The notes below the pieces were generated by a model. It was not told the origin of the DNA. It worked only from the letters and a program-made list of their open reading frames with translations, and did not search any database. From NCBI GenBank assembly GCA_038874135.1, contig JAVZCZ010000001.1:96001-160000 (forward strand): 64,000 nucleotides of DNA, written 5' to 3'. Shown here piece by piece: positions 1 through 52,887 of the stretch. This stretch comes from Candidatus Woesearchaeota archaeon (GTDB taxonomy: Archaea > Nanobdellota > Nanobdellia > Woesearchaeales > 0-14-0-80-44-23). A program made the position numbers and the translations under genes. Positions within the stretch are counted from its first letter, which is position 1. Each line of letters begins with the position of its first letter.

Positions 1-117
1 CTTTTTTTATCCCTTTTGGGAATAATTTCACCATCTGTTGAGGAGAAGCTTCGTAGCTATGAGCAGGCGAGAGCTCAGATAATAAAATCCTTTAGGCTGA
101 CCAGAAATGAATATTAA
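1..117 (+). CDS. 3' end of an upstream ORF (partial, unknown product)
   Basis: Frame 1 is open from base 1 (LFLSLLGIISPSVEEKLRSYEQARAQIIKSFRLTRNEY*) and overlaps the ATG at 107, suggesting an operon. Confidence 0.55.
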   Translation, partial: LFLSLLGIISPSVEEKLRSYEQARAQIIKSFRLTRNEY

Positions 118-1753
118 AAAGTTTTTTTCAGGAAGACTAAAAAGCGATGCAGCTTATGATTTGATACAGAAGGAGAATTGTGAGTATTCTCCTAATAGCG
201 TTCAGCACTTGTCTTTGGAGCAGGCGCTCAGAGATTGCCTTATTGGGATAAAGCAGGATGATAATTTGTCTCTAGTTTTTGACAGACAGGCAAAAATTTC
301 CGGTTGGAAGCAGGATGCCCTTTTGAAATCCTCAGTTGCCATCTTTGGCTCTTCTCCAGCTTCAAATTATCTCGCGGCAGGGCTTTCTGCGCTTGGAGTT
401 GGGCGTATATACTTAATTCCCGAATCTGCGAAGGCTCCGTCTTCTCAGGAGTTTCTCTCACGATTGGGGTCAAGGTCTATGCCAAGTGGTGATGGCTTGG
501 AGTACTGGTTGAACTGCAGGTTTCAGAAGAGTCCCCAGTGCAGGGTTTACCTTCTCCGCTCAGCCAGTGAGCTATTCGCATTTAGCATTCCTGACATTGT
601 TTTAGATGCGTCTCATAATTTAGAAGCCAAGCTTGACGCTCTGGACTTCTCTGCTTCACTGTCCGTTCCTCTGCTTTCGGTTTCTTTTAATGGTTATTCC
701 TCTCTTGTTTCAGCAGTGTTTCCTGGAGGCGCTTCTGATTTTTCAGGAAGGGGCTATCCGGGGATTTATTATCTTAAAGAGGCTGATGCTCGCAATTCTA
801 ATTATTTTAACGGTTTTAATATGGCTGCCTGCGGAGTTGCTTCAGGGATTGTTTTGGATATTGTTAGAAAGTTTCTTATGCCCCTCAGCCAGGATGTTTT
901 TCCAGAGCTTCCCTTCTATTATTCTTTGATTTCTGGCATCTCATATGGTGAGAGCGCTCTTAAATCTGCTTATGAAGATTTTTGCGGATTAGAAGGCATT
1001 TCGGAAAAGATGGTTGCTTCTCAAAAATTGCGGTGCCTGCTTGTTGGGGCTGGCGCTCTCGGGAACTTTGCAGCTTTGGCCCTTTGCCTTTCAGGAATTA
1101 GTGTGGATATAGCAGACTTTGATTCTGTGGAGCTTACCAATGCTAACAGGCAGATTTTAATCTCTGATAGGGATTCCATAGCTTTTGGAAGGAATAAGGC
1201 TGAGGTTCTTTCAGAACGGCTTAGAGAGTTGGGAGCTGACTGCACATTCATAAGGGGCATTGTTTCAAAAGGTGGTGTTCCTGAGGGTTATGCTCTGATT
1301 GATAAAACCTTTGTTCAGAAGAATGAATATGGTTGCATTTTGGGGTGCGTGGATAATCCCCTGGCGAGGGCGCTGTTAAATGAAATTGCTGTTCATCAGA
1401 GGATTCCTTTTTTTGATTCAGGCACTGAGCCTTTTTCAGGAAGCCTACGCTGTTACATTCCTGATATGAGCCCCTGCTTAGACTGCCAGGTTGGCATTTA
1501 TGAGCTAGCTCGCATCTGGGAGGAGCGCACTTTACAGAGGGATTCGTGTTCCCTCTCAGAAAAGGAGCCGAGTGTTGTAATTTCTAATATGTTGTTAGGC
1601 TCTGCGCTTGGCGGAGAATTGCTGAGGTTCTTGATTTTGCAAGAGTCTTTTCTTCCCCTTCTTTATGATTCCAGCAATCTTCACCCGCTCTTATTTTCAG
1701 GGGTAACTCCCGCTCCTTCAAAGAGCTGTTCATGTACTTCAAAAACAGATTAA
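107..1753 (+). CDS. E1/ThiF-family adenylyltransferase with two tandem adenylation domains (first degenerate, second intact)
   Basis: Domain 1: FDRQAKISGWKQDAL..VAIFGSSPAS..LSALGVGRI. Domain 2: LLVGAGALG, DFDSVELTNANRQ, KAE, GCVDNPLAR, DSGT, PCLDC, DSC, C-terminal CSC. Confidence 0.85.
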   Translation: MNIKKFFSGRLKSDAAYDLIQKENCEYSPNSVQHLSLEQALRDCLIGIKQDDNLSLVFDRQAKISGWKQDALLKSSVAIFGSSPASNYLAAGLSALGVGRIYLIPESAKAPSSQEFLSRLGSRSMPSGDGLEYWLNCRFQKSPQCRVYLLRSASELFAFSIPDIVLDASHNLEAKLDALDFSASLSVPLLSVSFNGYSSLVSAVFPGGASDFSGRGYPGIYYLKEADARNSNYFNGFNMAACGVASGIVLDIVRKFLMPLSQDVFPELPFYYSLISGISYGESALKSAYEDFCGLEGISEKMVASQKLRCLLVGAGALGNFAALALCLSGISVDIADFDSVELTNANRQILISDRDSIAFGRNKAEVLSERLRELGADCTFIRGIVSKGGVPEGYALIDKTFVQKNEYGCILGCVDNPLARALLNEIAVHQRIPFFDSGTEPFSGSLRCYIPDMSPCLDCQVGIYELARIWEERTLQRDSCSLSEKEPSVVISNMLLGSALGGELLRFLILQESFLPLLYDSSNLHPLLFSGVTPAPSKSCSCTSKTD

Positions 1754-1815
1754 TAACTATTATTTAGTGATAAAAATAGCAATGTTTATATATTAGTTAT
1801 TACTTTATAGTGATT

Positions 1816-2430
1816 ATGAAATTGGCGAGATTGGGGGCATTCATCTTAGTATTCCTTTTAGGCTGGCTCTCCAGCCTAGCATATTCTGAAATATCAACAT
1901 ATAAGCGCCAAGCAGCACTCATAGAAGAGTTTTACGATAAAGAAGCTCCTTACGCTCAATATAAATCAGCAGTTCAGCTGGCAAACCCGAATCGGGACAT
2001 GCTGAGAAGTGTGGCTTCGGAAGTTTCATCAGAAGTGGCTTCCCTATTAAACAAACAGGAGGGGCCAAGAGCGCCTCCAGACAGGATTACTGAAAAGCAG
2101 ATTTATGTCTTTAGAGATAAGGTTATACTTGACATTCCAAATGCTGAGTGGGCTTCCTTTACTCCAACTCATTCGATGGAGCCAGTTCTGAACGAGAACT
2201 CAAACGCAATTGAGGTCAAACCTTCTTCAGAATCCGAAATTCAAGTTGGTGACATAATCGCTTACAGGTCAGAATATGCTGAGGGCACGATAATCCACAG
2301 GGTAATTTCAATAGGCTCGGATGAGAAGGGATGGTTCTGTATTGCTAAGGGAGATAACAATCCCAACCCCGACCCTGGCAAGATAAGATTCAGTCAGATT
2401 GAAAGCGTCGTAGTTGCCATAATATATTAA
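1816..2430 (+). CDS. signal peptidase I (S26, Sec11/SipW-like) with extended N-terminal region
   Basis: N-terminal TM; Ser box THSMEP, VGDII, IIHRV, KGDNN. Confidence 0.85.
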   Translation: MKLARLGAFILVFLLGWLSSLAYSEISTYKRQAALIEEFYDKEAPYAQYKSAVQLANPNRDMLRSVASEVSSEVASLLNKQEGPRAPPDRITEKQIYVFRDKVILDIPNAEWASFTPTHSMEPVLNENSNAIEVKPSSESEIQVGDIIAYRSEYAEGTIIHRVISIGSDEKGWFCIAKGDNNPNPDPGKIRFSQIESVVVAIIY

Positions 2431-2482: not shown

Positions 2483-3223
2483 ATGGGTGATGAACACTCC
2501 CTGGAAGAGAAAGTGAAGCGTTTTCCAGATGAAACATTAGAATATTATAACGAATTTACCTCTCCCTTAGAGGTTGGAGCTGCTGAACTTATAGAAGAAT
2601 TGCTCAGAACTTCCAGCCTTGGAGGATTTCTAGGCTATTCAGAAAGTCTAATTGATATAAAGAGAATGGACTATGAGGTTTTAAATGCACATGGTGTTTC
2701 TTACCATAAGATAGTTGAAAATTTGGAGAAGATTAAGGAAGTGGCAATGCAGCAGTACTCTCAGAGTTCTCTTAAGCATAAGCGCGGCATAGTTTTTTAT
2801 CTTAACAACAACTATGAATTAGTTAGAGATGAAGCAGCTAAACATAAAAATCAGCTGATTACTTTTTTGAAGAAGATTTTGCTTGGCAAAAGCGCCGGCG
2901 ATAATGAAAAGGCTCATTTCAGAGTCTCAATAAGGAAATTGCAGGATGCATATTGTCCCTGGAGTGTAATTCCGGAGTCTCAGAAAGAGCTGAGTGCATT
3001 AAAATGCAGTTACACACTCTCTCCTAATTATGAAATCTTCATTGAGAACCTGCAAAATGGCAGCTCTTTCAGGTTCAACAACTTGCAGCTTCACATGATA
3101 AGTGAACATAAGTTTTTTGAAGGCAGGTACACTGCAATTGCTCATAACTTTATAGTGCACAACTATTACAGAGTAGAACCTCTGAATATCATCAAGACAC
3201 TTGAACTTGGCAGAAATTATTAA
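2483..3223 (+). CDS. hypothetical protein, possible Cys/His metal-binding
   Basis: 246-aa ORF with GGAGG SD; motifs GFLG..ESL, CPW, HMISEHKFFEG, YRVEP. Confidence 0.75.
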   Translation: MGDEHSLEEKVKRFPDETLEYYNEFTSPLEVGAAELIEELLRTSSLGGFLGYSESLIDIKRMDYEVLNAHGVSYHKIVENLEKIKEVAMQQYSQSSLKHKRGIVFYLNNNYELVRDEAAKHKNQLITFLKKILLGKSAGDNEKAHFRVSIRKLQDAYCPWSVIPESQKELSALKCSYTLSPNYEIFIENLQNGSSFRFNNLQLHMISEHKFFEGRYTAIAHNFIVHNYYRVEPLNIIKTLELGRNY

Positions 3224-5364: not shown

Positions 5365-5985
5365 ATGGACACGGAATTTGAAGAGCAAAAGTCCTATTCT
5401 TATGACAGGACGGTTCATCTCAGAATGAGCGGATGCAGGAATCTCTATGAGGATTCTCTTGAAGATATAATTAACGCATGTGTATTTCTTTCCAATGCTG
5501 ACGAGCGCGAGAGGATTATTCATAAGTTTTCTCCTCAGGGCGTGAGCTCCTCTTCAATATTGAGCGAGAGCCACCTTAACTTTCACATCTCTCCAGAGGA
5601 GCATGAAAGGTATGTTCAGATTGATATTTCTACCTGTGGAAGGCACACCACGCCTACAAAAATAGTGAGGTTTCTCATGGCATCTTTCATTCCGAGGGAA
5701 GCCAAGCTAAAGTATGAATACCTGGGTTTTGATTATATTGAGGATATCTTTCCAAAGAATGAGAACGATTTTCTAGATGAGATGTTTGAGAAAAGGTACC
5801 ATTTTGATTTTGAAGGAAAGCACCTGGTATACATATGGTCTTATTACAGTGCTAATTTTCCAATGCGCGAATTTGAAAGATATCTAGTGTATGAAGTTTC
5901 AGAATTGAAAAATCTGAACGACCAAAATCTTAGGGAGTTCTACGTTCACTTTAAATTTTTAAGAATGCAACCTATTTATTCTTAA
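5365..5985 (+). CDS. speD: pyruvoyl-dependent S-adenosylmethionine decarboxylase-family proenzyme with C-terminal extension
   Basis: HKFSPQGVS..ILSE|SHLNFHISPE..DISTCG; ES autocleavage site and catalytic Cys present. Confidence 0.75.
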   Translation: MDTEFEEQKSYSYDRTVHLRMSGCRNLYEDSLEDIINACVFLSNADERERIIHKFSPQGVSSSSILSESHLNFHISPEEHERYVQIDISTCGRHTTPTKIVRFLMASFIPREAKLKYEYLGFDYIEDIFPKNENDFLDEMFEKRYHFDFEGKHLVYIWSYYSANFPMREFERYLVYEVSELKNLNDQNLREFYVHFKFLRMQPIYS

Positions 5986-44471: not shown

Positions 44472-44562
44472 GACGCATCACCCAATTTTTAACTACTCTT
44501 TCATAACGACTATTTAAAGCTTTTGGGATAATTATTTAAAATATTGTAACATTCCATGTATT

Positions 44563-45195
44563 GTGAATGCACCCTTCATTGTGGAATTTGCAGGTCCTCC
44601 AAAGTCTGGAAAAACCACTATTCTTGAAAGGGTGAAATATCTTCTGCCATACTCTCTTACAATTCGTAACGAGGTCTCTTTCAATTCGCCTGTTGAGAAG
44701 AAAAAACCTTTAAAGTATCTTGAATGGTCTGCTAACGAGCTGATAAACCGTATAATAACTGATGAAGAAACTTCAAAGAAGCAGGTTGTAATTATTGACT
44801 GCGGAATAGCAAGTCAGCTGGCACTCCTGGACGCTTTTGAAAGAGGCGGTAGGGTTTCTGATTCTGAAAAGCACCTCTCAGAGCTTATAAGAAAGCATCT
44901 GCTGGCAAACCTTCCGAGAGAGCACCTCATAGTTTATGTGAGAATTCCATTTGAAGAAGAAGCTGCCAGAATAAAAAATTATAAGTTTCCCAAGGGCTCA
45001 ATAATGAACGAGCCCTTCCTAAAAATATTCAATGAGAGCTATGAAAGGGTTATTAGGGAGCTTTCAGAAAACTCGCTGATAAACATATTGAAAGTTGAAG
45101 GAACCGAAGACCCTGAAGAGAATGCTCAAATTGTTAATTCTGAAATCGTAAAAATTTTAAGAAATTTTAAGAGAAGATCAAACTATGAAGTTTAA
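44563..45195 (+). CDS. P-loop nucleotide kinase (thymidylate/deoxynucleoside kinase-like)
   Basis: IVEFAGPPKSGKTT, VVIIDCG, lid Arg; NMP-kinase layout. Confidence 0.7.
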   Translation: MNAPFIVEFAGPPKSGKTTILERVKYLLPYSLTIRNEVSFNSPVEKKKPLKYLEWSANELINRIITDEETSKKQVVIIDCGIASQLALLDAFERGGRVSDSEKHLSELIRKHLLANLPREHLIVYVRIPFEEEAARIKNYKFPKGSIMNEPFLKIFNESYERVIRELSENSLINILKVEGTEDPEENAQIVNSEIVKILRNFKRRSNYEV

Positions 45196-52245: not shown

Positions 52246-52887
52246 ATGGAAAGTGAAAATGTTATCAAGACCGGAACCACCACTGTTGGAATAGTTTGTA
52301 AAGACGGGATAGTGCTTGCTGCTGATAAGCGCGCCACAGCGGGCTACCTTATTGCTAGCAAGAAGACGGAAAAGATTCACCAGATAAGTGAAAACATTGC
52401 AGTTACAATGGCTGGAACCGCATCTGACGCGCAGCTGCTAGTTAAGATTGCCAGAGCAGAGCTTAAGCTTAAGGCATTGAGAACTGGTCAGGAGATAAGT
52501 GTCAAGGAGGCTGCAAATCTAATCTCACGATTAGTATATGACAACATAAGAAAGTTTTCATCCATCCCCGGCATTTCACAGTTCATTCTTGCAGGTAAGG
52601 ACTCTAAGGGGTTCGGACTTTACGACCTGTTTCCAGATGGAACCATTGAAGAGTGTGAGGACTACATGGCTTCTGGCTCTGGAAGCGTAATGGCTTTCGG
52701 AGTGTTAGAGACACTGTACAGAAAGGGAATGAGCATTGATGAGGGTATAAAGCTGGCTGTGAAGTGCCTGAATGCTGCAATTCAGAGGGATATCGCTTCT
52801 GGAAGCGGCTTTGATGTGGTAACAATAACCAATGAGGGAGTTAAGAAGGTTTTGGAAAAAGACATAAACGCCATGATTCAAGCGTAG
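52246..52887 (+). CDS. psmB: proteasome beta subunit
   Basis: Short propeptide then KTG|TTTVG, AADKRAT, SGSGS, RDIASG. Confidence 0.96.
   Translation: MESENVIKTGTTTVGIVCKDGIVLAADKRATAGYLIASKKTEKIHQISENIAVTMAGTASDAQLLVKIARAELKLKALRTGQEISVKEAANLISRLVYDNIRKFSSIPGISQFILAGKDSKGFGLYDLFPDGTIEECEDYMASGSGSVMAFGVLETLYRKGMSIDEGIKLAVKCLNAAIQRDIASGSGFDVVTITNEGVKKVLEKDINAMIQA

Follow-up and report, generated by a model that had tools for sequence, protein, structure and literature searches.

RESULTS AND DISCUSSION

Gene content of the locus

The window analyzed here, a stretch of 64,000 nucleotides (nt) covering positions 96001-160000 of the 910-kb, 99%-complete single-contig genome of a Candidatus Woesearchaeota archaeon, opens with the right-hand end of an operon for a putative ubiquitin-like protein (Ubl) conjugation system. 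The gene that closes this cassette encodes an E1-type activating enzyme (P0001, 548 amino acids [aa]; window 107..1753, plus strand), recognized from the open reading frame (ORF) list, Pfam, and a structure model as a single-chain pseudo-dimer of one inactive and one active adenylation domain. A whole-genome search identified it as the sole ThiF-family gene of the genome.

Three further genes precede it on the plus strand; their positions are given on locus L001, from which window positions are obtained by subtracting 16000. The Ubl candidate orfA (175 aa; L001:13034-13561, contig 93034-93561) and orfB (386 aa, combining repeats at the N terminus with a UBC-like domain; L001:13554-14714, contig 93554-94714) lie wholly to the left of the window, and orfC, a JAB/JAMM protease gene (460 aa; L001:14735-16117, contig 94735-96117), reaches into it with its 3' end (window 1..117). 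Neighboring genes in the series orfA-orfB-orfC-E1 overlap or sit 20 nt apart. An earlier note, made from the sequence of this stretch alone, had placed a Ubl-conjugation operon to the left of the window, and the upstream DNA bears it out: a Ubl candidate ending in a glycine pair (GG) plus a tail, an E2-like protein, and a JAB protease were found there, with no AAA gene in the locus. The upstream ORF seen to overlap the E1 start is that of the JAB protein, by 11 nt, with its stop codon at 115-117. A promoter scan at the operon performed at chance level.

The two adenylation domains of the E1

The Pfam ThiF model matched the E1 in two stretches (E 1.9e-38), with residues 50-290 alone scoring E 1.5e-4. 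A profile of the N-terminal half, built from 53 homologs, matched MoeB (2.5e-21), UBA6 (1e-12), SAE1 (5e-12), and APPBP1 (9e-9), and because MoeB, SAE1, and APPBP1 are among its matches, the N-terminal domain counts as a genuine ThiF fold; two such folds in one protein had been proposed from the sequence. In this inactive domain (aa ~55-275; window 269..931, plus strand; from profile and alignment), the Arg-Gln start is retained, with R60, within the motif at window positions 278-289 (region of nt 281-283), present in 66 of 72 aligned homologs. The P-loop, degenerate at aa 81-86, is reduced across these homologs to its first glycine, G81, and the ATP/Mg motif is gone, so that the description of a first fold with an E1-like beginning and lost GxGxxG and ATP motifs was accurate. 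By analogy with Arg9 of the bacterial E1 BilD, R60 is the probable trans-acting arginine finger.

The active domain (aa 305-548; window 1019..1750, plus strand), which the note had called intact, carries an undamaged GxGxxG motif (313-319), the ATP/Mg motif (337-349), K364, D416, and G439. The motif blocks 313-319, 337-349, 414-421, and 437-440 are all present and largely invariant in the 72-homolog alignment, and the P-loop glycines, D337, N345, N347, R348, Q349, K364, D416, and G439 are strictly so. Its crossover loop (window 1472..1588, plus strand) holds the CxxC pair C457/C460, one helix (464-477), and the candidate catalytic cysteine C481; a C-terminal CxC (C541 and C543; window 1724..1735, plus strand) supplies the second pair of Zn ligands. 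All four proposed Zn ligands are present in this E1 but are not a family-wide feature, as the C-terminal pair is kept in only ~28 of the 72 homologs and the CxxC is replaced in Desulfobacterota-type members. C481 is retained in 70 of the 72 and persists where the Zn ligands are lost; its loop is mobile in the model (pLDDT <50 at 479-484). C481 is not followed by a separate CYS/SCCH domain in this E1, in which ~30 aa with one helix lead from C460 to the next helix.

The AlphaFold model of the E1 (pLDDT 77; pTM 0.82) found Uba1/UBA7 as its best Foldseek matches (E 5e-20). A wide structure search returned human UBA1 at Z 30.8 (root mean square deviation [RMSD], 3.9; 445 residues aligned), and BilD, the E1 of PDB entry 8TYZ, was matched at Z 30.4 (RMSD, 3.1; 381 aligned), with single-domain MoeB below both at Z 25.1. 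The UBA1-like layout suggested earlier holds for the two adenylation domains and does not extend to the FCCH, SCCH, and UFD domains: this E1 is half the size of UBA1, and there is no room for these domains after C481 or C543. Like UBA1, UBA6, UBA7, SAE1-SAE2, and NAE1-UBA3, it pairs an inactive with an active domain, the arginine coming from the inactive one. Because the model fits UBA1 and BilD equally well, this arrangement is not specific to eukaryotes; the contrary view, which the note had taken over, is outdated and was rejected, since BilD shares both the layout and the operon order (10.1101/2023.09.26.559546). The family profile scored nearly level against Uba1 (113 bits), SAE2 (109), TcdA (103), and MoeB (102).

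The partner proteins

The orfC product scored 25.4 bits against Prok-JAB (cut-off, 25) and carries the full JAMM motif (E52, HSH at 109-111, SxxD at 119-122). The orfA product ends in a hydrophobic strand, the pair G165-G166, and a 9-residue tail. Among 74 sequences, G166 is invariant, G165 and Y152 are near-invariant, and the tails past the GG are variable, mostly of 1-8 aa. Conservation extends over ~130 aa in archaea and bacteria, with a strand-strand-helix-helix-strand-strand-GG pattern in the alignment that, by eye, is suggestive of a beta-grasp fold with an extra helix. All homologs are unnamed or hypothetical proteins without Pfam domains. When the E1 and orfA were co-folded, the median score was 0.38 (runs of 0.73, 0.38, and 0.00), with the best control at 0.00, which we take as weak support for an interaction. 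The mark used is reached by 58 of 80 solved complexes and 2 of 110 mismatches, and at or below 0.60 lie only 7 of the solved complexes together with both mismatches. Contact agreement between runs was 0%, partner pLDDT was at least 43, and resemblance to E1-Ubl complexes already solved may account for the pass. A second match to the orfA profile in the window (about 44518-45192) was discarded, as this ORF is P-loop kinase-like and does not end in GG. Tandem orfA-like copies occur elsewhere, as an expansion with four named copies, some lacking the terminal GG (L027:1213-5417), and as two copies in a genome of the same family (L185:8605-9620).

UBC enzymes have a His-Pro motif upstream of the catalytic cysteine. 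The UBC-like domain of orfB carries H307-P308-F309 and C321, and in its family the proline and cysteine are invariant (210 of 210) and the histidine is present in 196, giving the motif HP(F/L/Y)...C with Phe in place of the canonical Asn. The C-terminal domain family comprises 823 clusters. The domain model (pLDDT 94.7) found its best structural match in chain D of 9eav (Z 4.8; RMSD, 3.8; 106 aligned), whose residues 235-361 correspond to residues 230-362 of BubB, which is the E2 in the Bub system of Citrobacter. Among the best 50 rows of the structural search, 45 belonged to the UBC/UEV/RWD superfamily as assigned from titles, and the first Foldseek rows were Rad6 and Cdc34 at E 0.24 or worse. 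On the strength of the UBC/UEV/RWD rows and of the His-Pro motif upstream of a cysteine, we read orfB as an E2 that has diverged strongly. Its N-terminal part (~225 aa), which in the family contains two repeats related to each other (85% probability and E 7e-6 by hhalign), may replace an E3. Neither orfA nor orfB had a significant match in Pfam, PADLOC, NCBIfam, or PDB sequence profiles, and ESM Atlas searches with both returned nothing usable.

Distribution and evolution of the cassette

In a comparison set of 80 loci from other species, the closest cassette homologs were found in Woesearchaeota. Where the upstream DNA amounted to 4.5 kb or more, the complete four-gene set was present in 21 of the 24 archaeal and 27 of the 33 bacterial loci, the latter mainly from Desulfobacterota-type deltaproteobacteria with a few from Chloroflexi, Acetothermia, and others. 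Of 61 same-order (Woesearchaeota-type) genomes, 19 carry orfB, including all four of the organism's own family, and 17 carry the two-domain E1, each of them together with orfB; the two genomes with orfB but no two-domain E1 are ~80% complete. Some genomes have two to four cassette or E1 copies. One of them (G015/G464, 1.4 Mb) has four divergent two-domain E1 genes on contigs C13, C14, C16, and C37 (loci L181-L183 and L018), at least three of them in cassettes, with the C16 copy split by a TAA codon into ORFs of 207 and 280 aa. In several archaeal cassettes (L003:6131-7438, L025, L030, and L033), a JAB gene follows the E1, as a second copy in L003, L025, and L033.

Records titled "uncultured Methanosarcinales archaeon" (L008, identical to G002:C42, and L018 of G464/G015) fall within the organism's own family or order. 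A presence of the family in Methanosarcinales was therefore rejected; the two such records checked are kin of the window genome, mislabeled DPANN archaea, and, apart from a single short contig of Nitrososphaerales, the archaeal range is thus essentially that of DPANN. In trees, the deltaproteobacterial sequences formed one well-supported branch inside the archaeal diversity, with an unresolved root; this nesting suggests a transfer from archaea. A first, larger tree was run in quick mode only. In the adenylation-domain tree, in which giant-virus copies of Uba1 alone stand in for eukaryotes, the inactive domain grouped with MoeB (88/81, unstarred), and the two Uba1 domains grouped with each other (86/68) rather than with the domains of this family, a weakly supported difference. 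Forcing the inactive domains together was not rejected (p-AU 0.468), so that the tree leans toward an independent fusion of the E1 pair while leaving a common origin with UBA1 compatible with the data at a p-AU of 0.47.

The affinity to MoeB bears on the alternative that the E1 activates a sulfur carrier of the SAMP2/Urm1/TtuB kind, with orfA being thiocarboxylated for tRNA thiolation and orfB not being an E2. The E1 is the only ThiF enzyme available in the genome, which also encodes an NcsA/TtuA-like PP-loop enzyme with a ThiI-like gene beside it. This NcsA-like gene, however, lies 430 kb away, and its counterparts occur in 51 of the 61 relatives, many of them without any ThiF-fold profile match. 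ThiS, MoaD, or SAMP proteins were not found in the 99%-complete genome with PF02597, a model that matched 12 of 14 controls, and the partner accompanying the two-domain E1 in 17 of 17 relatives, orfB, has an invariant cysteine. No sulfur-pathway gene is among the commonest neighbor families listed, and a neighborhood survey found the homologs unlinked to genes for thiamine, molybdenum cofactor, or tRNA thiolation, in keeping with the earlier argument against sulfur transfer. We consider this alternative very improbable.

Comparison with known conjugation systems and a possible role in defense

The closest parallel is with the ISG15-like BilABCD systems of bacteria (Types I and II), for which an E1-E2-Ubl structure from E. 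aridi is available (PDB 8TYZ; 10.1101/2023.09.26.559546). Shared features are the gene order Ubl-E2-JAB-E1, a single-chain E1 with an inactive and an active domain and an N-terminal arginine (Arg9 in BilD), a four-cysteine Zn site in this E1 copy, a Ubl with a conserved glycine followed by a tail (cleaved by JAB in BilA), a JAB gene in the operon, and the absence of an E3 from it. There are also differences. The ~80-aa helical CYS domain of BilD is missing from this E1; in orfB, the histidine stands before the cysteine (H307...C321) throughout the family, whereas BilB has Cys138...His151 (CEHH region); and orfB adds the ~225-aa N-terminal repeats. No PADLOC BilB match was obtained among 64 orfB members, and PADLOC BilD matched the E1 at E 0.0012 in the C-terminal domain only. 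The family profiles gave Type I BilD ~15 bits or less, as against 102 for MoeB, and did not recognize Type I BilA or BilB, and 8TYZ was absent from the best 60 matches; a search of 401 genomes from a single bacterial phylum yielded no Type II BilD sequence. Moreover, the present family is centered on DPANN archaea, where it seems usually to lie away from defense genes, and often accompanies an AAA+ unfoldase. An identification of the E1 as BilD therefore fails on the CYS domain, the E2 motif type, and component homology beyond the superfamily level.

Other systems resemble the cassette in part. Bub (6E/DUF6527) likewise combines Ubl, E2, JAB, and E1, and its BubB is the best structural match of orfB, but its E1 is a homodimer without a catalytic cysteine, it forms Tyr/Ser oxyesters, and it uses a DUF6527 protease (PMC11601596), unlike the present family with its near-invariant cysteine in both the E1 (C481, 70/72) and orfB (210/210). 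With archaeal SAMP/UbaA/JAMM1 and with MoeB/ThiF, the cassette shares the ThiF fold, a JAMM partner, the crossover-loop cysteine, and an inactive domain nearest to MoeB. UbaA, MoeB, and ThiF are single-domain homodimers that work without an E2, from which this two-domain E1 differs. The Ub-E1-E2-RING-Rpn11 system of Caldiarchaeum/Asgard is similarly an operon of archaea in which Ubl, E1, and E2 genes stand together with one for a JAB-type protease. Its ubiquitin is a true one, its E2 a canonical UBC enzyme, and its E3 a RING protein, whereas orfA and orfB match no Pfam family; PF00179 and PF13639 had no match in the window genome, nor did any control genome match them.

The likeness to Bil raises the question of whether the same chemistry serves defense, with the tag blocking viral (or host or symbiont) proteins sterically and no unfoldase needed. 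The gene order is that of BilABCD, and the functionally tested bacterial systems, Bil and the Type II antiphage signaling system based on cyclic oligonucleotides (CBASS), are antiphage. The cassette occurs patchily in the order (19/61), single genomes hold as many as four divergent copies of it, and its proteins diverge quickly: within the genus, identity is 41% for the E1, 40% for orfA, 30% for orfB, and 39% for the JAB protein, as against 54-64% for the neighboring M50, S26-like, TctA, and MAP proteins. On the other hand, in those genus and family relatives that were examined, its place on the chromosome does not change: it adjoins the M50 peptidase gene. Archaeal locus neighbors are mainly housekeeping, kinase, and NUDIX genes, and the PADLOC families listed for them (25 of 73) are all kinase-type models. 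Plasmids gave no match to the orfB domain in a single-protein query, and viral contigs held only general ThiF/E1 relatives, mostly giant-virus Uba1. The Bil structure paper mentions neither AAA ATPases nor the proteasome. A Bil-like defensive role by direct modification seems to us plausible, at less than even odds. Ser/Thr kinase genes recur beside about eight cassette loci.

Links to AAA+ unfoldases and a proposed mechanism

A ClpX-like ATPase gene (NCBIfam ClpX, E 1e-79, below the cut-off) lies, together with an unknown gene of 135 aa, inside 27 of the 33 bacterial operons, nearly always between orfB and orfC, and a Mpa/ARC-like ATPase gene precedes orfA in 6 of the 24 archaeal operons (TIGR03689, E 1e-117, below the cut-off). 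Mpa-like ATPases occur in 3 of the 61 relatives, all three of which carry the cassette, with a chance probability of ~0.03 when kinship is ignored. The window genome itself encodes ATPases of the Cdc48-like and PAN-like kinds, along with two proteasome subunits. It is mainly this separate recruitment of an unfoldase on two occasions that leads us to prefer a tag-and-unfold role.

Our favored explanation, to which we assign a probability of roughly 0.7, is that the E1 belongs to a self-contained Ubl-E2-JAB-E1 protein-conjugation cassette that feeds its tag probably to AAA+ unfoldases. A conjugation chemistry with a thioester relay is highly probable, and the delivery of tagged proteins to an AAA+ unfoldase is tentative, at slightly less than even odds. 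Gene content, E1 fold, and conserved residues are observed; each catalytic step is modeled on Bil and eukaryotic cascades. The JAB protease, judging from its motif and from BilC, would cut orfA after G166, exposing the di-glycine, and would later remove the tag. The C-terminal domain of the E1 would adenylate the terminal glycine of orfA, and because R60 comes from the inactive domain, a single chain would form one active site. C481, conserved on its short mobile loop, would then form the E1 thioester, from which the tag would pass to C321 in the UBC-like domain of orfB. This protein would move the tag onto target lysines without an E3, its N-terminal repeat/helical region probably picking the substrates. 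Tagged proteins would go to the ClpX-like or Mpa/ARC-like ATPase where one is encoded in the operon, and here to Cdc48 or to PAN with the 20S proteasome; a setting of conflict or stress is plausible.

Several observations weigh against this explanation. There is no operon ATPase at the window-genome locus or in its own taxonomic family, nor in most archaeal cassettes. For the orfB match to the E2 fold, the Z of 4.8 is too low to be trusted on its own, and the Foldseek E is at least 0.24. MoeB and ThiF also carry a cysteine at the crossover-loop position of C481, so that although the note rightly pointed to a cysteine at the thioester position, this residue alone is no proof of thioester chemistry. 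For orfA, neither Pfam nor a PDB profile gave evidence of a beta-grasp fold. When orfA was compared by hhalign, four MoaD/ThiS and two BilA templates scored no better than reversed controls; because these templates are shallow, the null result does not exclude the fold.

Given the negative beta-grasp searches, orfA might instead be a GG-ended precursor or small protein modified by the E1, by peptide adenylation in the manner of MccB or PaaA. In that case orfB would be a tailoring enzyme dependent on Cys, and the M50 peptidase, whose gene adjoins the operon in the organism's own family, would act in the same pathway. Yet the ~130-aa secondary-structure pattern of orfA is conserved across archaea and bacteria, the M50 gene is divergently transcribed and seen only in the own family, and the JAB and UBC-like partners suit conjugation. 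We regard this alternative as very improbable and retain the conjugation cassette as the preferred explanation.

Side observations on the ATPase-linked loci concern two further protein groups. A conserved protein of ~135-200 aa, without a Pfam or NCBIfam match, is encoded between orfB and the ClpX-like ATPase in 28 bacterial loci (e.g., L050:4998-5405) and is a possible adaptor. In two Mpa-linked cassettes (L013:9364-11768 and L017:6276-11156), orfB is replaced by several shorter paralogues without HP...C that cluster weakly with orfB.

Other genes near the locus and in the window

The M50 peptidase gene (L001:11138-12742, minus strand) is syntenic in genus and family relatives. Downstream of the E1, an S26 signal-peptidase-like gene (window 1810-2430, plus strand) and an unknown gene (2483-3223, plus strand) follow, as they also do in the same-genus loci L005 and L007, outside the conserved cassette. 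Farther to the left, an acyl-carrier-protein-like ORF lies beside a long-chain acyl-CoA-ligase-like gene (L001:5650-7903, minus strand; read from motifs), an unusual pair in an archaeon, and a TrpRS-like gene (L001:7973-9073, minus strand) shares 77% identity with the corresponding gene of G003, a genome of another genus, versus 45-59% for other genes, a possible recent exchange. The window also contains an S-adenosylmethionine decarboxylase-like gene with a C-terminal extension (5365-5985, plus strand) and, unlinked to the operon, one of the two 20S proteasome subunit genes (about 52264-52827, plus strand).

Significance of the cassette

The two-domain E1 plan is already known from bacterial Bil systems. 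A description of the present family, of its tag and carrier families, and of the unfoldase link was not found in the literature searched, subscription journals being outside its coverage. What is added here is a census of the cassette, a bacterial branch linked to ClpX, failed tests of membership in Bil, and a tree of the adenylation domains.

Besides eukaryotes and Bil, this family makes up the third lineage in which a single-chain E1 pairs an inactive with an active domain, and it has the smallest form, with neither a CYS domain nor a UFD; it therefore offers a direct test case for the origin of E1 asymmetry and of E1-to-E2 transfer. Pfam, NCBIfam, and PADLOC do not see its Ubl-candidate and E2-like families, of which the second comprises 823 clusters in the case of its E2 domain. 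The cassette is kept by about one-third of the sampled genome-reduced archaea of the order, in some as multiple copies, and two different unfoldases are linked to it, which suggests a coupling of Ubl tagging to AAA+ machines outside eukaryotes. A more far-reaching scenario, which we consider improbable, is an archaeal-born tag-and-unfold pathway, in which a minimal fused E1, descended from the same ancestral pseudo-dimer as eukaryotic UBA1, would power an E3-less Ubl cascade delivering proteins to AAA+ unfoldases and the proteasome. If true, the family would represent a living model of a pre-eukaryotic E1, passed from DPANN archaea to anaerobic bacteria and rewired there to a ClpX-like ATPase.

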